Notes: generated by a model not told the origin, from the sequence alone. A DNA stretch of 32,000 nucleotides from Candidatus Saccharimonadota bacterium (GCA_001790095.1 MGBH01000001.1:330001-362000), one strand, 5' to 3'; shown: positions 6,192 to 31,298, counted from the stretch's first letter. A program made the numbers and translations.

Positions 6192-6500
6192 CTATTGTAT
6201 CAAAAACCGTATGCCAAGTACAAAGGAAAGAAGTAGTAAAGTATTAAGCCAATTAAAGCCAATCGATGCATTGATAAAAAGAAGTATAAAAAGGAAAATG
6301 CTTAGCAGTATCGAATCCTTTTTTTTAACGAAATAGGTAGTAAGGAAAAAGACGAACAAAGAAACGCAGATTGAAAAAGCAAATATAATAGGAAACCCAT
6401 TCGGTTCCAAAAAAAGCAGGCTGTAACAAATAAAACATCCAAGTATAGTCAAAAGTAACAATCTTGTTTTTTTTAGAGTAGAAGCAACTTTTTTTTGCAT
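6192..6500 (-). CDS. Small hydrophobic membrane protein of unknown function
   Basis: The ORF has about 3 predicted TM stretches and heads the metG/PBP operon (stop 3 nt before the metG start). I chose the ATG at 6500 over the TTG at 6506 used in the ORF track. No family recognised. Confidence 0.5.
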   Translation of the reverse strand: MQKKVASTLKKTRLLLLTILGCFICYSLLFLEPNGFPIIFAFSICVSLFVFFLTTYFVKKKDSILLSIFLFILLFINASIGFNWLNTLLLLSFVLGIRFLIQ

Positions 6501-6519
6501 ACGCAAATCAAATTCTCGC

Positions 6520-15598: not shown

Positions 15599-16406
15599 AG
15601 TGTTAAATTTGTTGGATATCAAGACAGGATGTCGCTATATTGATGCAACTGTTGGTGAAGGCGGTCATACGAAAGCAATATTAAGTATGGACGCAAAGGT
15701 GTTGGGTCTTGATCGAGATTCATCTCAGATAGAACGCCTTGCCAAACACTTGCATGACGATGACAATCTGACATTAACAGTTGCTAACTTTAGCGAAATT
15801 GCCAAAGTTGCAAAAAAGAACGGGTTCGTAGAGGTTGACGGAATTTTGTTTGATCTTGGACTTTCTTGGGATCAGTTAGGTGCAAAGGGGGTGGGTTTAT
15901 CTTATCGAAAGACACAAGAAGCGCTTGATATGAGGCTTGATGAAGAGGAAGAGTTAACGGCAGAACAGATATTAAATACCTACTCAGAAAAAGAGCTCTA
16001 TGATCTTTTCGCCCGCAACTCTGAGGAGATACGAGCATCTGACATTGCCAAGTCGATTGTACACCAGAGAAAGTCAAGAAAATATAAAACAGTAAGAGAT
16101 CTGAACTTAACAATTGACACAGTCATGGGTAAAAATGCAGGTAAGACATACAGCCGTATTTTTCAAGCATTACGGATAGAAGTCAATAATGAATTTGAAA
16201 ATTTAAAAAAAGGCCTGAGTGGGGCAATGGAGCTTATTAGCAAAACTGGAAGAATAGCGGTAATTAGTTTTCATTCTTTAGAGGATCGAATTGTTAAGCA
16301 GTTTATTAAAGAGCACGGCATGAAGCAGATTAATAAAAAAGTAGTGCAAGGAAATCGGTTGTTATCGTTTGAAAAGCCGGCTAAATTAAGAGTATTTTCA
16401 CTATGA
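15573..16406 (+). CDS. rsmH: 16S rRNA (cytosine1402-N4)-methyltransferase RsmH (MraW)
   Basis: MHHPVLLNEVLNLL..YIDATVGEGGHT..FDLGLSWDQL..ISFHSLEDRIVKQF. I chose the start at ATG 15573, which overlaps mraZ by 26 nt, over the TTG at 15489 in the ORF track. Confidence 0.9.
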   Translation: MHHPVLLNEVLNLLDIKTGCRYIDATVGEGGHTKAILSMDAKVLGLDRDSSQIERLAKHLHDDDNLTLTVANFSEIAKVAKKNGFVEVDGILFDLGLSWDQLGAKGVGLSYRKTQEALDMRLDEEEELTAEQILNTYSEKELYDLFARNSEEIRASDIAKSIVHQRKSRKYKTVRDLNLTIDTVMGKNAGKTYSRIFQALRIEVNNEFENLKKGLSGAMELISKTGRIAVISFHSLEDRIVKQFIKEHGMKQINKKVVQGNRLLSFEKPAKLRVFSL

Positions 16407-16678
16407 AATCAATCATAAGACAAGGTATATATGTTCTATTTATTCTTATTGCAGCAGCCAATCTGTATTTATTTGTTGCTGGAATGTATTTAAGTGACGA
16501 CATTAATCGTTTTGACAACAGTATAAAAAAACTGACTCAAGAAAATCTTCAGCTTGAAAAGGAAGTTTATCAGGTAGAATCATTACAATATGCTGCTTCA
16601 CTTAGCGCTCATCTTGATTTCACCGAAAAGTCGCAGCCCGTATATTTTGAGAATTTGAAATATGCATTTAACAGATGA
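16403..16678 (+). CDS. FtsL-like small bitopic cell-division protein
   Basis: 91 aa with one N-terminal TM segment followed by a coiled-coil-like segment (KKLTQENLQLEKEVYQVESL). It sits between rsmH and ftsI, with ATGA overlaps on both sides. The call rests on position and architecture only. Confidence 0.55.
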   Translation: MKSIIRQGIYVLFILIAAANLYLFVAGMYLSDDINRFDNSIKKLTQENLQLEKEVYQVESLQYAASLSAHLDFTEKSQPVYFENLKYAFNR

Positions 16679-18337: not shown

Positions 18338-19555
18338 ATGATACAAAAAATAAAAAATACATATCATCTTCTTCAAGCAATTATTGCTAATATTTTTTAT
18401 GGCTTTCCAAGCCACAAATTGAAGGTAATAGGAATTACGGGTACTGATGGTAAAACTACGACTACTCATTTAATCTATCATATTCTCAAATCATCAGGAA
18501 AAAAAGTATCAATGATATCAACGGTTTATGCAAAAGTAGGCGATAAAGAATATGACACAGGGCTTCATACCACAACTCCCAACGCATTTCAGGTCCAAAG
18601 TATGTTAAGACTTGCCCTTAAGGCACATGATGAATATTTTATCCTTGAGACGACATCGCACGCGCTTGATCAAAATAGGGTATGGGGTATAGCTTATAGT
18701 ATGGGAATTTTAACCAACGTGACACACGAACACTTGGATTATCACAAAGATTACGAAGACTATCTACATACAAAAGTGCTTCTTCTTAATCGTTCAAATC
18801 AGATTATCATAAATCGGGACGATGAATCTTATAACAAGATCATGCAAAACAGTATGACGAAGGGTAAAAAATTATCAACGTATGGTTTATGTGGTAAGGC
18901 AGATTATATGTATGACTTCAAAAAAACTATCCCTCTTCTTGCGGAGTTCAATGCATATAACTTTTTAGCAGCGTATGTCGCAGCTAAGAAAATCGGAGTA
19001 AAAGAAAAAGAAATACTAAGTGCAATGCGGACATTTAGGTTGCCACCTGGAAGGATTGATATAGTCTATGATAATAAATTTAAGGTGATTGTTGACTTTG
19101 CCCACACCCCAAACGCGATAGCTAAAATTCTCCAAACAGTAAGATCTGTTTATTTGAAGAAGGGCGGGAAAATTATTCACGTTTTTGGTTCTGCTGGACT
19201 TCGTGATGTAAGCAAGCGCCCGCTCATGGGTATTGCAAGCGCGTCTGAGTCTGATATAACGATACTCACAGAAGAAGATCATAGGATTGAGGATCCCAGA
19301 GATATATGTGAACAAATCGGAAAAGGACTAAAAAGCTCGGGTTTTATCCGTAAAACAAACCTGTCTTCAACGGACAGAAAAAAATACAGCACGATCATTG
19401 ATCGTTATACTGCATTACAACAGGCAATACGACTAGCAAAAAAAGATGACATCGTTATTATTACTGGAAAAGGACACGAAAAAAGCTTGTGCAGAGGTAA
19501 AACTGAAACCCCATGGGATGAGGTAAAAGTTGTTAAAAGCATTCTGCGAGTATGA
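18338..19555 (+). CDS. murE: MurE-type Mur ligase (UDP-MurNAc-L-Ala-D-Glu:diamino acid ligase), short form lacking the N-terminal domain
   Basis: GITGTDGKTTT P-loop at about residue 33, LTNVTHEHLDYH, DFAHTPNAI (the MurE-type DYAHTP), and TEEDHRIEDPR at the position of TDDNPRTEEPR. Confidence 0.8.
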   Translation: MIQKIKNTYHLLQAIIANIFYGFPSHKLKVIGITGTDGKTTTTHLIYHILKSSGKKVSMISTVYAKVGDKEYDTGLHTTTPNAFQVQSMLRLALKAHDEYFILETTSHALDQNRVWGIAYSMGILTNVTHEHLDYHKDYEDYLHTKVLLLNRSNQIIINRDDESYNKIMQNSMTKGKKLSTYGLCGKADYMYDFKKTIPLLAEFNAYNFLAAYVAAKKIGVKEKEILSAMRTFRLPPGRIDIVYDNKFKVIVDFAHTPNAIAKILQTVRSVYLKKGGKIIHVFGSAGLRDVSKRPLMGIASASESDITILTEEDHRIEDPRDICEQIGKGLKSSGFIRKTNLSSTDRKKYSTIIDRYTALQQAIRLAKKDDIVIITGKGHEKSLCRGKTETPWDEVKVVKSILRV

Positions 19556-20292
19556 TTTATTTTAGTCCTATAAATAAAACCTATATGTCCTCAAAACTGG
19601 ATGACATATCTTTGTCTATGGGATTTACCACAAAAGTTATAGGCGATGGACGGGTAATTGATAATGTTTTGTCATATTTACGCATAAATCAAGTCATTTT
19701 CAAAAGCCTTATTGTTGCAGAGCAAATACATTCTGCCAATGTTGCTAGCTTTGATTCACCTATGCATCGTGAGGTTGAACTTTTACCGGAAACAGATGGC
19801 ATAGTTACTACAGAAAAAGGAATTGCGATAGCAGTTCGGACCGCAGACTGTATACCTATCATCTACTGCGATTTAAAGGCTGGAGTGATAGCGGCATCGC
19901 ACAACGGCTGGAGGGGGTCTCTTAAAAATATATCGTCAAGAGTCATTGATATCATGGTGGAAAGGGGCGCTTCAAAAGAAAACATTGTTGTAGCGATTGG
20001 TCCAGGGATTGGAGCATGCTGTTATGACGTACAGGATGAACGATACTATAGTTTTCTGGAAGAATTCGACAATGATTTTGGCGCATTCAGCATACGAGGA
20101 GGTAAACGGCATCTTAATCTGTTAAAACTGAATTATGAGATTTTGAAGCGTATCGGTATTAAGACTGATAACATTGATTTTTTTCCCTTTTGTACCATGT
20201 GCAATAAAGACCTCTTCTTTTCTTATAGACGTGACTACAAAAAGCATCCAGACAGATTTGGAGAAATGTTTAGTTTTATTGTGAGAAATTAA
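19552..20292 (+). CDS. pgeF: YfiH/PgeF family (DUF152 'laccase-domain') protein, a peptidoglycan editing factor candidate
   Basis: The conserved His/Cys/His triad is in context: EQIHSANV, RTADCIPI, ASHNGWRG. Also GPGIGACCYDV and a C-terminal FSYRRD. Confidence 0.85.
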   Translation: MIYFSPINKTYMSSKLDDISLSMGFTTKVIGDGRVIDNVLSYLRINQVIFKSLIVAEQIHSANVASFDSPMHREVELLPETDGIVTTEKGIAIAVRTADCIPIIYCDLKAGVIAASHNGWRGSLKNISSRVIDIMVERGASKENIVVAIGPGIGACCYDVQDERYYSFLEEFDNDFGAFSIRGGKRHLNLLKLNYEILKRIGIKTDNIDFFPFCTMCNKDLFFSYRRDYKKHPDRFGEMFSFIVRN

Positions 20293-24013: not shown

Positions 24014-25263
24014 AAAAAATATCCAACATTGTTATCCTTGCAGGCGGTGATAGTGACCGTTTTTGGCCATTAAAGGAAAAATTCCTCTTTTCAATTTTAG
24101 GAAAGTCATTATTACAGAGGCTCGTAGAAGGAGTTCTTCCTTATGGAGAGCAGATATTTGTAGTATGTAACAAGCACAACGAAGGTTCTATACATGAAGC
24201 AACAAAGGGAAAAGTAAAAACTATTATTCAGAATAATCAAGGTACCGGCATGGCTGCTGCAGTTTTATCTTGCGATAGCGAAGTAAAAGACAATGTTCTT
24301 ATTCTTAATGCTTCTGATTTCTTTGACTTTAATATATTGAGTGAGTTTTTAAGGCGAATAGAAAAGGGAAGCCCGGATTTTATCTGTTTGGCAAAAAAGA
24401 CAAAAGAATATTTTCCTGGGGCATATATTGAGTTCAATGGCGAGAATATTGTAAGATTTATTGAAAAACCTGCACCAGACAAGGTGCCTTCAGATACGCT
24501 CAAGCTTGTTGTTGATTATATTGCCGATTTTCAGTCATTTGTAAAAGTATTGAGAGAAACAGCAACAAACGCAGATGATCAATATGAAAAAGGATTAAAT
24601 TCGTTTCTAAAAAATAAAACAAAAACTGAATATGTACTTTATGAAAGTTATTGGTATATGTTGAAGTATTCTTTTCATCTTTTATCAATGCTTCGATTCT
24701 ATCTTGCTGAAAATAGAACTTCTATGATTGATAAAACAGCATCCATATCTAAAAACGCTGTGATAAATGGAGTGGTATATATCGGAAAACATGTTGTCAT
24801 TGGCGATTTTGCAAAGATTGCTGGCCCATGTTATATTGGTGACAACACCATAATAGCTGACTATGCGCTTGTTCGCGAAAGCCACATAGGTCGTAATTGT
24901 CTCATCGGTTCCTCAAGTGAAGTTGCACGATCTTACTTGGGCGACAATGTAATGCTGCATCGCAATTACATTGGTGACTCAGTGTTGGCAAACAATGTTT
25001 TGTGTGGAGCTGGAGCAGTTACTGCTAATTTTCGGTTTGATGAGAAGGAAGTATACTCATTTGTCAAAAAAAACAAGATTAATAGTGGTTTAAAGAAGCT
25101 TGGTGCTATAGTCGGTACAAATACAAAAATAGGAGTGAACAGCACTATTTATCCAGGAGTGAAGATAGGTAGTGAGGTACTTATTGCCCCACATGAAGTT
25201 ATAAAACAAGACGTAGGAGACAATTTATTTTATATGAATGGAGCCGGAATGGAAAAAAAATAA
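24010..25263 (+). CDS. Sugar-phosphate nucleotidyltransferase with a C-terminal left-handed beta-helix domain (GlmU-like architecture)
   Basis: N-terminal ILAGGDSDRFWPL (NTP-transferase G-rich loop). The C-terminus has hexapeptide repeats (IGKHVVIGDFAKIAGPCYIGDNTIIADYALVRESHIGRNCLIGSSSEV...). Substrate not determinable by eye. Confidence 0.7.
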   Translation: MKKISNIVILAGGDSDRFWPLKEKFLFSILGKSLLQRLVEGVLPYGEQIFVVCNKHNEGSIHEATKGKVKTIIQNNQGTGMAAAVLSCDSEVKDNVLILNASDFFDFNILSEFLRRIEKGSPDFICLAKKTKEYFPGAYIEFNGENIVRFIEKPAPDKVPSDTLKLVVDYIADFQSFVKVLRETATNADDQYEKGLNSFLKNKTKTEYVLYESYWYMLKYSFHLLSMLRFYLAENRTSMIDKTASISKNAVINGVVYIGKHVVIGDFAKIAGPCYIGDNTIIADYALVRESHIGRNCLIGSSSEVARSYLGDNVMLHRNYIGDSVLANNVLCGAGAVTANFRFDEKEVYSFVKKNKINSGLKKLGAIVGTNTKIGVNSTIYPGVKIGSEVLIAPHEVIKQDVGDNLFYMNGAGMEKK

Positions 25264-25264
25264 T

Positions 25265-26239
25265 ATGAAAAAAATCACAGTACTTGGGGGCGGAACAGGG
25301 ACATTTGTTGTGCTGTCGGGTATTAAAAGGCTTCCAATTGATCTTGGTGTGATTGTTACCATGATGGACTCAGGTGGTTCAACAGGGCGTCTTCGTGACC
25401 AATTAGGAGTGTTGCCGCCGGGTGATTTGAGGCAATGTTTAGTAGCTCTTTCTGAAGCACCGGAGTTATGGAGAAAACTGTTTCTATATCGGTTTGAAAG
25501 AGGAGATTTTAAAGGTCATAATTTTGGGAATATTTTTCTTTCAGCACTTGAAAAGGTATCGCAAAACTACGATCAAGTACTTGATACGGCAAGCTACGTG
25601 CTTAAGACCTCAGGTATGGTTATCCCTGTTACTTTTGAAAAAACCACTCTTTGTGCTCAATACGAAAACGGAAAACTTCTTAAAGGAGAGACATATATCG
25701 ATGAAAATCATGCGGAGATAAGCAAGATAAAACGTACCTTTCTTGAACCGAGCGTCTCAGCAAACCCAAAAGCCATTACACGCATAAAAGACTCAAACTA
25801 CCTTATCATGGGGCCGGGAGATCTGTATACAAGCATCATTCCCACACTTCTCGTTGATGGAATGAGGGAAGCTGTAATTCACACGAAGGCAAAGATAATC
25901 TACGTTATGAATCTTATGACAAAGTCCGGGCAAACCTCCAATTACACTGCGCAAGACCATATCAAGGATCTGGAAAGCTATCTTGGTCGGAAACTTGATC
26001 ATATCATCATCAATAATGGCAAGATACCGGAGGATATAATACAATGGTATATCACACACAACGAAAAACCCGTTATCAACGACCTCGATAAAGCGTGTTG
26101 TAATGGAGCAGTCGTTGAAAAAGATGTTGTTGACAATGTTTCTATAGTGAAGGGCAGAGCTGATGTATTAACAAGAAGCATATTAAGACACGACAGTCAA
26201 AAATTAGCAGATATTATACGCACCCTTATTAATATATGA
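25265..26239 (+). CDS. yvcK: YvcK/CofD-family protein (gluconeogenesis factor / GlmR-like)
   Basis: LGGGTGTFVVLSG, MDSGGSTGRLRD and PPGDLRQCLVALS. I chose the start at ATG 25265 (MKKITVLGGG) over 25238. Confidence 0.85.
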   Translation: MKKITVLGGGTGTFVVLSGIKRLPIDLGVIVTMMDSGGSTGRLRDQLGVLPPGDLRQCLVALSEAPELWRKLFLYRFERGDFKGHNFGNIFLSALEKVSQNYDQVLDTASYVLKTSGMVIPVTFEKTTLCAQYENGKLLKGETYIDENHAEISKIKRTFLEPSVSANPKAITRIKDSNYLIMGPGDLYTSIIPTLLVDGMREAVIHTKAKIIYVMNLMTKSGQTSNYTAQDHIKDLESYLGRKLDHIIINNGKIPEDIIQWYITHNEKPVINDLDKACCNGAVVEKDVVDNVSIVKGRADVLTRSILRHDSQKLADIIRTLINI

Positions 26240-26595
26240 TCAGAAGACACACCATTTCGATTAAAAATGCTTGGAACGGGATCATCTGGTCTTTTTCCAC
26301 ACAACCAAACTATCGCATCCATGTGCTACTTTCCTCGCTATCCCTTGCTCTTGGTGTTTGGTTAAAAATAGCCGATTATGAATTTTTGATAATTTGCGTA
26401 TTAATAACACTTGGTCTTTCTATTGAGACGATAAATACCGCAATTGAAGAAGCAACAGATGCTGTGGACACAAAGATTCGTGAAGATATCAAGCGAGCAA
26501 AAGATGTATCTGCTGGTGCGATGCTTATTTTTGCTATTGGAGCAACGCTTATTGCTGGATTTATTTTTATACCCAAGATATTGTTACTATTTTAA
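26236..26595 (+). CDS. dgkA: DgkA-family lipid kinase (diacylglycerol/undecaprenol kinase)
   Basis: 119 aa with 3 TM segments. SIKNAWNGIIWSF, ETINTAIEEATD and AKDVSAGAML match the DgkA signature. Confidence 0.85.
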   Translation: MIRRHTISIKNAWNGIIWSFSTQPNYRIHVLLSSLSLALGVWLKIADYEFLIICVLITLGLSIETINTAIEEATDAVDTKIREDIKRAKDVSAGAMLIFAIGATLIAGFIFIPKILLLF

Positions 26596-26613: not shown

Positions 26614-27651
26614 ATGTCTCTATACCTTTTTGCAACTTTTGTATCCTTTTTGTTCAATTTTTTTCTCATTGTTCCCTTTATACATTTTTTGTATAAGGCT
26701 AAATTCCAACGTCAAAATCAGCAGACAAAAGACGCTTTTAACAAACCGACACCTATCTTTGATAAGTTCCATGCCCATAAAATGGGTACTCCTGTTGGTG
26801 GAGGTATACTAATCGTTGTTACCACAACGCTTCTTTTCGGTTTTTTTGTATTACTTTATGCCGTTTTTAATAAACCCCTCCATGCTAATTATCCTTCAGT
26901 AATAGGTGAAATAAAGATAATATTTTTTACTTTTTTAGGATTTGCTCTTTTGGGAATTTATGACGATTTGACAAAAATTTTACTTTGGAGGAAATCACTT
27001 TTTTTTGGATTGAGAATGCGACATAAATTTATTCTGGAAATTATCCTTGCGACAATTATTGCCTACTGGTTATACTCAGATCTAAAAATTGACATAATCC
27101 ATATACCCTTTTTTGGCGTATTTACTTTGGGATGGTTTTATATTCCTTTTGCATCGTTTGTCATCGTTGCATTTTCCAATGCAGTTAATATAACTGACGG
27201 ATTAGATGGACTTGCTTCAGGTGTTCTTATGATCGCTTTAACAGGATTCTGGGTCATTGCAAGATCGATTATCGATGTACCAACTTCAATGTTTATCGGT
27301 GTATGGTTGGGCGGGCTTCTTGCATTTTTGTACTTTAATATCTACCCGGCACGCATCATACTGGGAGACACTGGTGCGCTTTCATTTGGCGCAATGTTTG
27401 CGGTCATTGGGCTCATATTGGGAAAAGCATTTGCTCTCCCCATGATAGGAGGAGTTTTTATACTTGAGATTGTGACGTCTCTTGTTCAATTATTAAGCAA
27501 AAAATATCTGAAAAGAAAAATGTTTACCGTTGCTCCTTTTCATCTTTGGCTTCAGCTTCGTGGGTGGGAGGAACCTAAGGTAGTGATGCGGCTTTGGCTT
27601 CTTTCTATCATCTTTTCGATCTTTGGTCTTATGATTGCGTTTATGAAGTAA
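26614..27651 (+). CDS. mraY: Phospho-N-acetylmuramoyl-pentapeptide transferase
   Basis: Polytopic. NAVNITDGLDGLA, GDTGALSFGA and PFHLWLQLRGW. Confidence 0.93.
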   Translation: MSLYLFATFVSFLFNFFLIVPFIHFLYKAKFQRQNQQTKDAFNKPTPIFDKFHAHKMGTPVGGGILIVVTTTLLFGFFVLLYAVFNKPLHANYPSVIGEIKIIFFTFLGFALLGIYDDLTKILLWRKSLFFGLRMRHKFILEIILATIIAYWLYSDLKIDIIHIPFFGVFTLGWFYIPFASFVIVAFSNAVNITDGLDGLASGVLMIALTGFWVIARSIIDVPTSMFIGVWLGGLLAFLYFNIYPARIILGDTGALSFGAMFAVIGLILGKAFALPMIGGVFILEIVTSLVQLLSKKYLKRKMFTVAPFHLWLQLRGWEEPKVVMRLWLLSIIFSIFGLMIAFMK

Positions 27652-27669: not shown

Positions 27670-28974
27670 ATGAACAGCCAGGGTTATTTCTCTTTTGATA
27701 CCTATAGTATTTCAGACGACAGGAAAAGCCTTTATTTTGACTATTCTCACATCCTTCCTGACGGGAATAAAATACCATTTAAAGAAAAAGTTATCTTTCC
27801 ATACGCAATCTCAACAAGTATATCCTCAGTCCTACTTAATCAAATACTTATAAGTCTCCATTTGGCAATTGGGATAAGCTACTGGAAGCTTTATTGTCCG
27901 AGCCATATACAGATAAGGGGATATCAACTTGATTCTTTTCAAGCTCATTTTTGGAATACAGTATATACAAAAGGACTGGGAGAATTTTTTTTTAAAAACA
28001 AGATCAACTTTCACGGACTAATAGACTTTCCCTACAGTGAAAAGATTGTTATTACAAACGATGTAGTATCTACTGGATTTATACCTGTTAATAACAAACA
28101 AAACTACTTGTTGGGGATCGGTGGGGGAAAAGATTCAATTGTAGCTTTAGAGATGTTAAAACAAGCAAAAAAAGATACAACGGGTTTTATTCTTTACCAT
28201 AAAAACGAGGACATAAAAATAAAAAAAGAAGTACTTGGAGTTATGGGAATTAATAGCTTGATAGTTGAGAGAGAGATAGACAAAAAGCTTTTTGAGTTGA
28301 ACAAAAGCCATAAGGTTTACAACGGTCACGTGCCGATCACTGCCATATATTCTTTTGTAGGTATTCTTTTGGCTTTGATCATGGGTTACTCCTTTGTGAT
28401 CATACCAAACGGGAAAAGCTCAAACATCGGTAACCTTTGTTATTTAGGTGAGATTATTAATCACCAGTGGAGCAAGAGTGAAGAGTTTGAGGATTTGCTG
28501 CGAAAATATCTTGATCATTCCTCCCTCGGACGGATTGCTTATTCTTCAATATTACGTCATATGAACGAACTTGAGATTACGAAGGAGTTCATAAAACACA
28601 AAAAATATTTTAATGTTTTTTCAAGCTGCAACAAGAATTTTAGAATATACAAAACGCATAAGACAATAGCAAACAACAAAGAGTTGAGGTGGTGTGGAAA
28701 GTGTCCAAAATGTGCCTTTGTTTTTACCATGTTGTCAGCCTATCTATCGGGGGGAGAGGTTGAAGATATTTTTAAAAAAAATCTTTATAAAGACCCATCT
28801 CTTATTATTTTGTATAAAGATTTACTTGGTGTTGGTGACTTAAAACCATTTGATTGCGTGGGTACACCCGATGAAGTAAGAACCGCTTTTTATATGGCTT
28901 ACAAAAGAAACGAATATAAGGATGATGTCATTATGAATATGTTTATTAAAGAAGTATTACCAAACATGAAATAA
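27670..28974 (+). CDS. Uncharacterised PP-loop (adenine-nucleotide alpha-hydrolase-like) protein with a C-terminal CxxCxxC; candidate MurL-like UDP-MurNAc-L-Ala-L-Glu epimerase
   Basis: A 434-aa ORF with host-like composition. LLGIGGGKDS (aa 147-156, nt 28108..28137) resembles the SGGxDS PP-loop. SSCN and WCGKCPKC (nt 28690..28713) resemble the QueC/TtcA-type Cys cluster. The N-terminal ~140 aa are unrecognised. That it is a coding region is high confidence; the function is inferred from context only. Confidence 0.6.
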   Translation: MNSQGYFSFDTYSISDDRKSLYFDYSHILPDGNKIPFKEKVIFPYAISTSISSVLLNQILISLHLAIGISYWKLYCPSHIQIRGYQLDSFQAHFWNTVYTKGLGEFFFKNKINFHGLIDFPYSEKIVITNDVVSTGFIPVNNKQNYLLGIGGGKDSIVALEMLKQAKKDTTGFILYHKNEDIKIKKEVLGVMGINSLIVEREIDKKLFELNKSHKVYNGHVPITAIYSFVGILLALIMGYSFVIIPNGKSSNIGNLCYLGEIINHQWSKSEEFEDLLRKYLDHSSLGRIAYSSILRHMNELEITKEFIKHKKYFNVFSSCNKNFRIYKTHKTIANNKELRWCGKCPKCAFVFTMLSAYLSGGEVEDIFKKNLYKDPSLIILYKDLLGVGDLKPFDCVGTPDEVRTAFYMAYKRNEYKDDVIMNMFIKEVLPNMK

Positions 28975-28978
28975 ATCA

Positions 28979-30211
28979 ATGAAGTTAAAAGACCTAAAAA
29001 ACAAACGAATTCTTATCCTGGGTTATGGCAAAGAAGGAAAAGCAACAGAAGCTTTCTTAAAGAAAGCTTTTCCTAGTATATTAGTAGATCATACTGACAA
29101 GAAGATGGAGTCTGCTTATTTGGAAAGACAAAAAGAATATGACGTTGTCATAAAGACCCCAGGTATTCCCAAAAAGTTTATTACTGTTCCCTACACTACT
29201 GCTACCAATTTATTTTTTGAGAGTTGTCCAGGCGTCATCATTGGCGTCACCGGTTCAAAGGGTAAAAGCACTACATCTACCCTTATTTATCATATTCTGA
29301 AGTCTTCAGGTAAACCTGTTCATTTGGTTGGTAATATTGGCAACCCAGCGTTGTTAGAGCTTATGCTTCCGAGAGGAAAGGATGATATTTTTGTGATAGA
29401 ACTTTCAAGTTATCAACTTGACGACATTGCTTATTCTCCTCATATCAGCGTAATGCTTAACCTATTTCCCGAGCACATGGATTACCATGGCGATGTATCT
29501 ACTTATTTTGAATCAAAAAAGAACATCATTAAGCAAAGCAAAGAGAATGATTTTTTTATCTATAATCCTCAGTACGAAGATTTGGTGCAGCTTGCAAAAA
29601 ATACTTACTGTAGAGCAATTCCTTTCACAGAGCTCATACCCCTTTCTGATAATAAAATACCGCTTCTAGGAGAACACAATAGGACGAATATTAAGGCAGC
29701 GCTCACTGTAGTATCTTTATTTGATATATCTGAAGAAAGTATAAAAAAGTCGCTTTTGACATTTAAACCTCTTCGACACCGGCTTGAAAACATAGGCACT
29801 TATAGAGAAATAACATTTTATGACGATGCAATCTCAACGACTCCCCAGTCTACCATTGCCGCTATCAAATCCCTTTCTCCCATCGACACCATTTTTCTAG
29901 GGGGGGAAGATAGGGGTTATGATTTTTCAACTCTTGTAGATGAAATAATTAAAATGCGGATATCCAACATCGTGTTATTTCCTAATTCAGGGTTAAAGAT
30001 CCTATCGTTTTTAAAAAAACAAACAGCATATCAACCTCGCATTCTAGAAACTTCAGACATGAAAGAAGCAGTAAGATTTGCATACTTGCATACAAAACCC
30101 CACACTATTTGTCTCCTTTCTACTGCGTCTCCAAGTTATAGCGTATGGAAGAATTTTGAAGAAAAGGGAGATCTATTTACTCTTTATGCTTCTAAATATG
30201 AGAAGAGTTAA
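28979..30211 (+). CDS. murD: MurD-type ligase (UDP-MurNAc-L-Ala:glutamate ligase) with an atypical amino-acid pocket motif
   Basis: ILILGYGKEGKA (Rossmann-like N-terminus), GVTGSKGKSTTS, ELSSYQLD, NLFPEHMDYHG, GEHNRTNIKAAL and KPLRHRLE are colinear with E. coli MurD. DDAISTTP replaces NDSKATN. Confidence 0.85.
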   Translation: MKLKDLKNKRILILGYGKEGKATEAFLKKAFPSILVDHTDKKMESAYLERQKEYDVVIKTPGIPKKFITVPYTTATNLFFESCPGVIIGVTGSKGKSTTSTLIYHILKSSGKPVHLVGNIGNPALLELMLPRGKDDIFVIELSSYQLDDIAYSPHISVMLNLFPEHMDYHGDVSTYFESKKNIIKQSKENDFFIYNPQYEDLVQLAKNTYCRAIPFTELIPLSDNKIPLLGEHNRTNIKAALTVVSLFDISEESIKKSLLTFKPLRHRLENIGTYREITFYDDAISTTPQSTIAAIKSLSPIDTIFLGGEDRGYDFSTLVDEIIKMRISNIVLFPNSGLKILSFLKKQTAYQPRILETSDMKEAVRFAYLHTKPHTICLLSTASPSYSVWKNFEEKGDLFTLYASKYEKS

Positions 30212-30215
30212 GCCC

Positions 30216-31298
30216 ATGACCGACAATAAAACCCGTGCGAAAAGATCGTTTATTACCTTGTTTTCTTTACCTATCGTGCTTTCGGTTATTGGTCTTTTTT
30301 TTGTGTTTGAAGCCTCTTACGTAAGAAGCTTTGGTGAATATAGGGATAGTTTCCATTACTTCAAAATTCAAGCAACGTGGATTCTGCTTGGTACCCTTAT
30401 CATGGTGATTCTTTCTTATGTTGACTATCATAAACTATATTACGGAGCTTTTTTTCTGATGCTTGTCAATATATTTCTTTTATTTCTTGTGCTTGTTCCA
30501 GGCATCGGCACAAAAGTAAATGGTGCACGAAGGTGGATTTTTGGTTTTCAACCTACAGAGATGGCAAAATTCTCAGTAATTATCTATCTGTCTTCTTGGT
30601 TTATTACCAAAGAAAGAAAACGTTTTTTTTCCTTTATCATTTTACTTGGACTTCTTATGTTTTTGATTATTTTGCAACCTGATATGGGAACTGCAGCTAT
30701 CCTTTTTTCCCTCAGTATTGCCATATATTTTTTGGCAGGTATTGAGCTTCGTTATTTACTGTTTTTAGTGCCGTTTTCTCTCCTCAGTTTTTATATGCTA
30801 GCAAAATCATCACCTTATAGACTTAAGCGTTTGCTTGCTTTCTTTGATCCTACAATCGATCCACTGGGTATAACTTATCACATCAATCAAATTTTGATTT
30901 CATTGTCAAACGGAGGAATTTTTGGTCAAGGATTTGGTGCATCCAAACAAAAACATCTTTATTTGCCCGAGGCTCATACAGACTCAATTTTTGCAATCAT
31001 AGGGGAGGAGATTGGATTCTTGGGGAGTTTCATTTTAATCACTATCTTCATATTCCTTGCTATATATATATTTAGGATTGCAGAGCAAGCTCATGACAGG
31101 TTTGGCAGGCTGCTTTGCGGCGGTATATTTGCTTTTTTCTGTCTTCAAACGACAATAAATTTAGCAAGCATGGTCCACCTTATTCCTTTAACAGGAGTTC
31201 CTTTACCATTTATCTCCTATGGTGGTTCGAATCTGCTTCTATCCTTTGCACTTATGGGTATTGTGTTAAGCATTGCCAGAAGCATAAAAATTAGATAA
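30216..31298 (+). CDS. ftsW: SEDS-family peptidoglycan polymerase FtsW
   Basis: Polytopic. GARRWIFGFQPTEMAKF, LQPDMGTA, PEAHTDSIFAIIGEEIGF and PLPFISYGGSN. I chose the start at ATG 30216 (the alternative at 30198 overlaps the murD end) rather than the ORF-track start at 30078. Confidence 0.88.
   Translation: MTDNKTRAKRSFITLFSLPIVLSVIGLFFVFEASYVRSFGEYRDSFHYFKIQATWILLGTLIMVILSYVDYHKLYYGAFFLMLVNIFLLFLVLVPGIGTKVNGARRWIFGFQPTEMAKFSVIIYLSSWFITKERKRFFSFIILLGLLMFLIILQPDMGTAAILFSLSIAIYFLAGIELRYLLFLVPFSLLSFYMLAKSSPYRLKRLLAFFDPTIDPLGITYHINQILISLSNGGIFGQGFGASKQKHLYLPEAHTDSIFAIIGEEIGFLGSFILITIFIFLAIYIFRIAEQAHDRFGRLLCGGIFAFFCLQTTINLASMVHLIPLTGVPLPFISYGGSNLLLSFALMGIVLSIARSIKIR

Follow-up and report, generated by a model that had tools for sequence, protein, structure and literature searches.

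We analysed a 32-kb window of bacterial DNA (the whole stretch of 32,000 nucleotides (nt), MGBH01000001.1:330001-362000) in which a 434-amino-acid (aa) open reading frame (ORF) at 27670..28974, on the plus strand and with an ATG start, lies between mraY and a murD-like gene. This ORF is predicted to encode the epimerase MurL, and the adjacent ligase gene at 28979..30211 would encode its partner MurD2; together, and with no need for free D-glutamate, the pair would supply the D-glutamate (D-Glu) residue in the stem peptide of peptidoglycan. We place the probability of this reading at about 0.85. It draws on the observed family membership, fold, conserved residues, gene linkage, gene fusions, and MurD2 signature, from which the activity of the window protein and the roles of its residues are predicted. 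The pathway was described in Xanthomonas oryzae, which has no murI; there, XOO_1319 (MurL) turns the L-glutamate (L-Glu) product into the D-Glu form (Feng et al. 2017, reviewed in PMC8788868 and PMC5808125). The reaction uses one adenosine triphosphate (ATP), forms adenosine monophosphate (AMP), and runs in one direction only, complementation of a D-Glu auxotroph needs both X. oryzae genes, and the Micromonospora and Salinispora pairs were confirmed in vitro (PMC8788868, PMC5808125).

For the family assignment, the ORF was scanned against NCBIfam, which resulted in a single match, NF041275 (E-value 2.5e-93, 313 bits), running nearly end to end (ORF aa 38-433 on profile positions 37-416 of 447). 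This model, 'MurL, UDP-N-acetyl-alpha-D-muramoyl-L-alanyl-L-glutamate epimerase', is named for and tuned to Xanthomonadales and has an equivalog cutoff of 700 bits. The identical protein is deposited as 'hypothetical protein A2334_02060' of Candidatus Roizmanbacteria bacterium RIFOXYB2_FULL_38_10, from the candidate phyla radiation (CPR, Patescibacteria), and was left 'hypothetical' by NCBI due to a score under the Xanthomonadales-tuned cutoff; its CPR relatives likewise scored below the cutoff (282-401 bits). The same protein carries precomputed Pfam matches to PF26299 MurL_N and PF26298 MurL_epimerase_C, and some homologues 47-48% identical to the ORF were already named MurL epimerase by the Joint Genome Institute (JGI). 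Our local Pfam copy returned 0 matches for the ORF, which is no evidence of novelty, since the copy predates the MurL models. Based on full-length homology to the MurL models, though below the equivalog cutoff, and on genomic pairing with an L-Glu-type MurD, the ORF belongs to MurL (EC 5.1.1.23), a known family. The original prediction, made before any homology check, had proposed a MurL-type epimerase at this position, and the check came out positive, with support from NF041275 and from both Pfam domains; its remark of no recognisable match in the N-terminal ~140 aa is superseded, as this region corresponds to MurL_N. When 1.84 billion cluster representatives were searched exhaustively with HMMER, the result was 2,412 family members at an E-value of 1e-3 or lower and 1,044 at 1e-30 or lower, a family size of about 2,400 clusters at 50% identity.

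We then collected MurL loci by scanning species-representative genomes with a DNA pattern for WC..C.KC and CVGT in codons high in guanine plus cytosine (GC). The scan yielded at least 120 loci from about ten phyla, a codon-biased sample that gives no estimate of prevalence, and all of them hold a MurL homologue (E-values from 1e-11 to 1e-107). Among the matches listed, 100 loci could be judged, as the sequence continues for 1.3 kb or more past the downstream end of murL. In 76 of these 100, murD lies directly downstream of murL on the same strand, and in another 10 MurL and MurD share one reading frame, nine as MurL-MurD (L015, L025, L028, L033, L044, L051, L059, L074, L084) and one as MurD-MurL (L113), so that murL is followed by, or fused to, murD in 86. 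The remaining loci comprise two with a murD nearby and 12 with none in view; MurL genes without an adjacent murD are flanked by unrelated housekeeping genes, with no alternative context. Additionally, about 18 proteins among the 150 best family representatives have the length of a fusion (795-883 aa), and the four checked by NCBIfam are MurL+MurD fusions in both orders (P0139, P0155, P0197, P0260). Fusions are present in CPR lineages and Bacteroidales. Because the two proteins are fused in both orders across phyla, there is strong evidence that MurL and MurD act on consecutive steps.

The adjacent ligase, on the plus strand and 410 aa long, matched TIGR01087 with an E-value of 1e-75 and 255.5 bits, above the cutoff of 211.95. 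Four positions of X. oryzae MurD2 (E197, R358, P433, and F435) correspond to D182, K348, A414, and L416 of E. coli MurD; the E197D/R358K double mutant flips MurD2 from L-Glu to D-Glu, the P433/F435 positions by themselves left its specificity unchanged, and E. coli MurD K319T gained L-Glu acceptance (PMC8788868). We aligned the window ligase with four canonical D-Glu MurDs from the PDB (E. coli, 7sir, S. agalactiae 3lk7, and T. maritima 4buc, in this order below) and with 78 MurL-adjacent or MurL-fused MurDs among the matches listed. At E. coli D182, the window ligase has E165, the references have D/D/T/D, and the 78 MurL-linked enzymes have E in 66, D in 10, and G in 2. At K348, the window residue is R312, against K/K/R/K in the references and R in 77 and S in one of the MurL-linked set. 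A414 corresponds to P385 (references A/A/A/A; MurL-linked P 34, A 34, S 9, T 1), and L416 to Y387 (references L/F/W/F; MurL-linked Y 63, F 12, P 2, H 1), with Tyr replacing the Phe of MurD2. Finally, K319 is I285 in the window ligase and K in all four references, and the MurL-linked enzymes have I in 66, L in nine, A in two, and F in one, but never K.

The catalytic residues K96, N119, E141, H166, K180, T287, S386, and F393 of this MurD-family ligase are all retained and align with E. coli MurD K115, N138, E157, H183, K198, T321, S415, and F422. Due to the presence of the published specificity residues and the retention of the catalytic ones, the window ligase looks like an L-Glu-specific MurD2 (EC 6.3.2.53) by the published residue criterion. 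The earlier description of this neighbour as an atypical MurD thus holds up: in E. coli numbering, it has Glu at 182, Arg at 348, Pro at 414, and an aromatic residue at 416. As the TIGR01087 cutoff is exceeded, the window ligase is likely to receive the name of a D-glutamate ligase, and for it and many other MurL-linked murD genes the pipeline annotation probably states the wrong substrate stereochemistry. Separately, the segment DD(A/S)ISTTPES in place of NDSKATN looks like a diagnostic motif; K319 is the Lys of NDSKATN, and K348 belongs to GGDGKS.

For the structural analysis, an AlphaFold2 model of the ORF was built on 30 homologues. The model was confident (predicted local distance difference test, pLDDT, 88.4; predicted template modelling score, pTM, 0.88) and poorly defined only at aa 129-141 and 328-338. 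When the model was submitted to Foldseek against the PDB, the first match was B. subtilis QueC (3bl5; E-value 2.4e-6; template modelling score 0.74 normalised to QueC) and the second was Erwinia QueC (2pg3), followed by TtuA, Cap9, MnmA, argininosuccinate synthase, LarE, GMP synthetase, and NAD synthetase; the top 50 matches are all PP-loop enzymes. With hhalign, MurL 143-351 aligned on QueC 3-204 (E-value 2.3e-4), placing GGGKDS over the SGGQDS of QueC, and in the family profile LVGIGGGKDS aligns with LVAVSGGKDS of TtuA and VVGMSGGVDS of MnmA. The QueC-like PP-loop ATP-pyrophosphatase domain thus spans aa ~143-351 (28096..28722, plus strand). Its GIGGGKDS (aa 149-156; 28114..28137, plus strand), a variant of the SGGxDS loop located at the first beta-strand/helix junction of the Rossmann-like fold, would form the loop that binds the ATP alpha-phosphate and pyrophosphate (PPi). 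The PP-loop that had been read from the motif is therefore confirmed by the fold, by QueC as best structural match, and by the alignment of the loop to those of TtuA, MnmA, and QueC, and the proposed structure prediction and Foldseek check returned a confident model with PP-loop ATP pyrophosphatases on top. The N-terminal MurL_N domain (aa 1-~128; 27670..28053, plus strand) has three beta-strands followed by helices at pLDDT above 90, and its near-invariant residues are Y71, K73, G102, and N110; Foldseek reported no structural match for it in the PDB.

These structural matches could point to a QueC-like or tRNA-modifying PP-loop enzyme with no cell-wall role that stands in the cluster by chance, since QueC, TtuA, and MnmA are the best of them and one homologue (P0112) is labelled QueC by JGI. 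However, the structural identity to QueC is 13-15% and limited to the central domain, and among the Pfam and NCBIfam models MurL alone matches. Those of QueC, TtcA, MnmA, and PAPS reductase gave no match to the ORF, including the models of the QueC family proper (PF06508 / TIGR00364). The result that the original prediction had set against itself, a hit to an unrelated PP-loop family with no MurL similarity, did not occur. In addition, the murD adjacency in 76 of 100 loci and the 10 fusions across phyla are beyond chance. We give almost no credence to a QueC or tRNA-modification identity of the ORF and rejected it as effectively refuted by the MurL model matches, the murD linkage, and the fusions. 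A phmmer search of the ORF against the PDB returned only spurious complement-factor matches (E-value ~0.5), and that PDB copy contains no MurL structure.

Conservation was measured on 150 family representatives chosen without any motif. In a 97-sequence alignment, W341, C342, C345, K347, C348, C396, V397, G398, and T399 were forced by the search pattern, and they were re-measured on the motif-independent set. In that set, G153 and K154 are present in 150/150, D155 in 149/150, and S156 in 147/150, with the residues of GGKDS in 146-150 of 150, and each clustered cysteine occurs in 142-143 of 149 representatives. Because they are conserved in motif-independent representatives, the PP-loop and cysteine motifs are not due to chance. 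The four cysteines, C320...C342-x2-C345-x2-C348 (28627..28713, plus strand), lie in SSCN (aa 318-321) and WCGKCPKC (aa 341-348; nt 28690-28713), and hhalign places them over QueC C186, C195, C198, and C201, reportedly the zinc ligands in the QueC structure paper. The cluster is thus a probable structural zinc site, as it would be in QueC. Six representatives lack all four cysteines (P0154, P0164, P0205, P0231, P0247, and P0248, with SDST, SDYV, or DSSS at aa 320, 342, 345, and 348) and keep the PP-loop, H220, H265, K269, C396, and all other invariant residues. Since all four are lost together and everything else is kept, the site looks structural and dispensable, and C396 looks independently essential. 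Between the clustered cysteines, the loop at aa 328-338 varies in sequence and is modelled with low pLDDT.

C396 lies in KPFDCVGTPDE (aa 392-402; 28843..28875, plus strand), within a C-terminal helical domain. In the motif-independent set, Cys4-less members included, C396 and P393 are present in 149/149, V397 and G398 in 147/149, and E402 in 146/149. Overall, no variation is seen at C396 (in KPFxCVGTxxE), K154, H265, K269, K347, and P393, and very little at H220, E274, R296, and E402. This pattern makes C396 a candidate for the catalytic thiol.

PP-loop enzymes adenylate a carbonyl or carboxylate oxygen with release of PPi, and QueC does so on a carboxylate. A QueC-like PP-loop core hence offers a structural basis for the alpha-carboxylate adenylation hypothesis of the discoverers of MurL. 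In the mechanism that we propose, MurL would invert the terminal residue of the nucleotide-linked precursor after L-Glu has been added. The N-terminal domain probably holds the uridine diphosphate (UDP)-linked N-acetylmuramic acid moiety, the QueC-like domain would bind ATP through GGGKDS, and the alpha-carboxylate of the terminal L-Glu would be adenylated with release of PPi. The steps after adenylation are our own suggestion: activation would acidify the C-alpha proton, which would be removed and then returned on the opposite face, with the invariant C396, H265, and K269, together with H220, as candidates, possibly via a C396 thioester or an oxazolone. Hydrolysis would then free the D-product and AMP, and for this reason the reaction would be one-way. 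The PP-loop fold and motif are consistent with the ATP-to-AMP stoichiometry reported for MurL (PMC8788868, PMC5808125).

The same adenylate could have another fate. A MurL-family protein might adenylate the Glu alpha-carboxylate and let another nucleophile capture it, for instance ammonia to give isoglutamine, and the result would be a modified stem peptide and no epimer. The core is QueC-like, QueC itself adenylates a carboxylate that ammonia then attacks to give an amide, and the nucleophile that resolves the adenylate is not readable from sequence alone. We nevertheless consider amidation quite unlikely, because the L-Glu-type signature of the partner ligase calls for a downstream epimerase and not an amidase. 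Additionally, the family-invariant residues are all kept, the family as defined by its hidden Markov models (HMMs) includes the characterised Xanthomonadales enzymes, and the linkage and fusion of murL and murD are alike in all phyla sampled, which argues for one conserved function. The cluster also contains no glutaminase or ammonia-donating partner gene.

Several points weigh against the epimerase assignment and its MurD2 partner. The 313 bits of the ORF are far below the 700-bit NF041275 equivalog cutoff, QueC is matched only modestly by hhalign (probability 44%, E-value 2.3e-4), and the comparison with X. oryzae is made through HMMs and residue numbers quoted in a review. Just four canonical MurDs served as reference, and the S. 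agalactiae one also has Arg at position 348; Asp is kept at position 182 in 10 of the 78 MurL-linked MurDs listed. C396, H265, and K269 are candidates for their roles. The absence of murI and of a D-amino-acid aminotransferase gene covers the ~42 kb around the gene, namely the 32-kb window and the 10 kb downstream. Lastly, a 2024 study by Penalver et al. (Environ Microbiol 26:e16621; reference 104 of PMC11974145) reportedly describes an active glutamate racemase from the CPR bacterium Ca. Saccharimonas aalborgensis, and murI thus cannot be assumed absent from the CPR generally.

The last two points also favour the possibility that the pair is present in an organism that has murI or a second canonical murD as well, which would make the MurL route redundant, conditional, or vestigial. 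We regard this as quite unlikely. The MurL-linked murD is the murD of the division and cell-wall cluster itself, at its canonical place between mraY and ftsW, and both genes keep all catalytic and invariant residues. Neither a racemase nor an aminotransferase gene appears in these ~42 kb. Moreover, redundant pathways are rarely retained in the small genomes of the CPR.

With MurL and MurD2 as the preferred reading of the pair, the finding extends known biology and is not a discovery, and both the family and the place of this protein in it are already recognised by Pfam, NCBIfam, and JGI annotation. The pathway itself is known, but the literature searched has no report of it from this lineage: in the open-access literature, we found no paper linking MurL or MurD2 with the CPR, nor with PP-loop enzymes or QueC. 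What the present analysis adds is the MurD2 signature, an indication of how broadly the family is distributed, the fusions, and the QueC-like architecture. As a result, a 'hypothetical protein' becomes a specific, testable enzyme assignment, and its neighbour is flagged as probably mis-annotated in stereochemistry, TIGR01087 being a D-glutamate ligase model. According to the reviews, MurL has no conserved domain of a known kind, and the pathway, which they put forward as a target for narrow-spectrum antibiotics, is confined to a fairly small number of genera, in some Gamma- and Alphaproteobacteria and in rare actinobacteria, apart from low-similarity matches elsewhere that they leave unnamed (PMC8788868, PMC5808125). 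The QueC-like PP-loop core suggests otherwise on the first point and comes with named residues to mutate.

On the second point, the pathway appears far wider than these two reviews state. By record title, the matches listed include about 32 loci from Clostridia and other Firmicutes, 29 from the CPR, 20 from Bacteroidales/Bacteroidia, 16 from Actinomycetota (mostly Acidimicrobiia and Nitriliruptoraceae), 10 from Acidobacteriota, four from Pseudomonadota, three from Myxococcota, two from Binatota, one each from Bdellovibrionota and Chloroflexota, and two unclassified; none is from Xanthomonas. MurL homologues among them occur in phyla not named in PMC8788868 or PMC5808125, namely in Clostridia (Oscillospiraceae, Lachnospiraceae, Ruminococcaceae), rumen and gut Bacteroidales, Acidimicrobiia, Nitriliruptoraceae, Acidobacteriota, Myxococcota, Binatota, Bdellovibrionota, Chloroflexota, and at least 10 CPR lineages. 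MurL is common in the CPR, in gut and rumen Clostridia, and in Bacteroidales, which bears on the narrow-spectrum antibiotic argument. A broader reading, which we hold tentatively and at slightly less than even odds, is that MurD2/MurL is a major and probably ancient D-Glu route, often hard-wired as a fusion, in much of the Patescibacteria/CPR, many Clostridia, Bacteroidales, Acidimicrobiia, Acidobacteriota, Myxococcota, and others, and that MurL is QueC-derived, with a dispensable zinc site and epimerisation via the invariant C396, possibly through a thioester. If true, this C396-dependent epimerisation would be a mechanism not described for any racemase.

Some individual loci deserve mention in their own right. 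Six from Acidimicrobiia and Acidobacteriota (L037, L040, L041, L046, L053, L069) match the C-terminal half of MurL only (E-values from 1e-11 to 1e-18), in longer or different ORFs with murD not nearby; they may represent a divergent paralogous subfamily that shares the Cys cluster and the CVGT motif. One locus (L082), on a contig of a 'Lysobacteraceae' metagenome-assembled genome, has a GC content of 29% and encodes a MurL with 42% identity to the window protein, and is probably a mis-binned CPR contig. Saccharibacteria, from which the racemase of Ca. Saccharimonas aalborgensis is reported, also hold MurL-MurD loci (L006, L028, L092, L113), and both D-Glu routes may therefore occur within this group.

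The genomic setting of the pair was confirmed from coordinates and translation, including the ORF, both of its motifs, and the claimed gaps of 18 nt after the end of mraY (27651) and 4 nt before the start of the murD-like ORF (28979). The flanking genes are also as first named, with TIGR01087 for murD and, for mraY (phospho-MurNAc-pentapeptide transferase; 26614..27651, plus strand), which forms the upstream neighbour in an operon-like run, TIGR00445 (E-value 1.2e-53) and Pfam Glycos_transf_4 (E-value 8e-31). On the opposite strand across the MurL ORF, there is no overlapping ORF of at least 80 aa, and the gaps on either side show no terminator-like sites and only promoter-like matches at the background level of shuffled sequence. 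The window contains a complete cell-wall and division (dcw/mur) cluster with tiny gaps, in the order murJ (minus strand), mraZ, rsmH, a small ftsL-like ORF, ftsI, murE, pgeF, murC, murB, murA, a glmU-like gene, yvcK, dagK, mraY, the MurL ORF, murD, and ftsW. On a longer contig with the identical gene, the cluster goes on through murG, ftsQ, ftsA, and ftsZ. Neither murF nor ddl was found in the window.

Several neighbouring genes have features of their own. The window murE (18338-19555), which starts right after ftsI, encodes a protein of no more than 405 aa, whose alignment to MurE models starts at about profile position 87; the Pfam Mur_ligase N-terminal domain gave no match in it, and the UDP-binding N-terminal domain appears to be missing or much reduced. 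The mechanically called ftsW ORF (30078-31298) opens at TTG and overlaps murD by 134 nt, whereas on the identical contig ftsW was called at 360 aa, equivalent to an ATG at ~30216, 4 nt past murD. Inside the mur cluster lie pgeF (peptidoglycan editing factor, 19552-20292), a yvcK-like UDP-GlcNAc-binding protein (25238-26239), and a diacylglycerol/undecaprenol-type kinase (26236-26595). Four ORFs (105-656, 1457-2122, 6192-6506, and 16403-16678) have no Pfam family in the local copy; one of them, 91 aa long, occupies the ftsL position between rsmH and ftsI.

Compared with known systems, the window protein resembles X. oryzae MurL (XOO_1319) in its full-length HMM homology (NF041275, MurL_N, and MurL_epimerase_C), in a gene that adjoins an L-Glu-type murD, and in a PP-loop fold that fits the reported requirement for ATP and formation of AMP. 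It differs in coming from a very distant lineage (Candidatus Roizmanbacteria, CPR; 37% GC), in the position of its gene between mraY and murD2 in the dcw cluster, and in an activity that is predicted. The window ligase likewise resembles X. oryzae MurD2 in having E165 and R312 at the specificity positions with P385 and the aromatic Y387, whereas it has Tyr instead of Phe at the fourth position, is shorter (410 aa), and has a predicted specificity. With QueC (3bl5, 2pg3), MurL shares the PP-loop, the C...C-x2-C-x2-C cluster at aligned positions, and a chemistry that would open with carboxylate adenylation; unlike QueC, to which it is 13-15% identical, it carries additional domains at the N-terminus (~128 aa) and the C-terminus (~80 aa), and its substrate and the fate of its adenylate differ, making it a predicted QueC-type adenylating enzyme and not a QueC. 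Finally, MurL and the glutamate racemase MurI, a cofactor-independent, two-cysteine enzyme, both provide D-Glu for peptidoglycan and possibly both use a cysteine thiol at C-alpha, which in MurL would be C396. Their folds are unrelated, however, and MurI acts on free glutamate, reversibly and without ATP, whereas MurL acts on a nucleotide-linked dipeptide in a one-way, ATP-consuming reaction.

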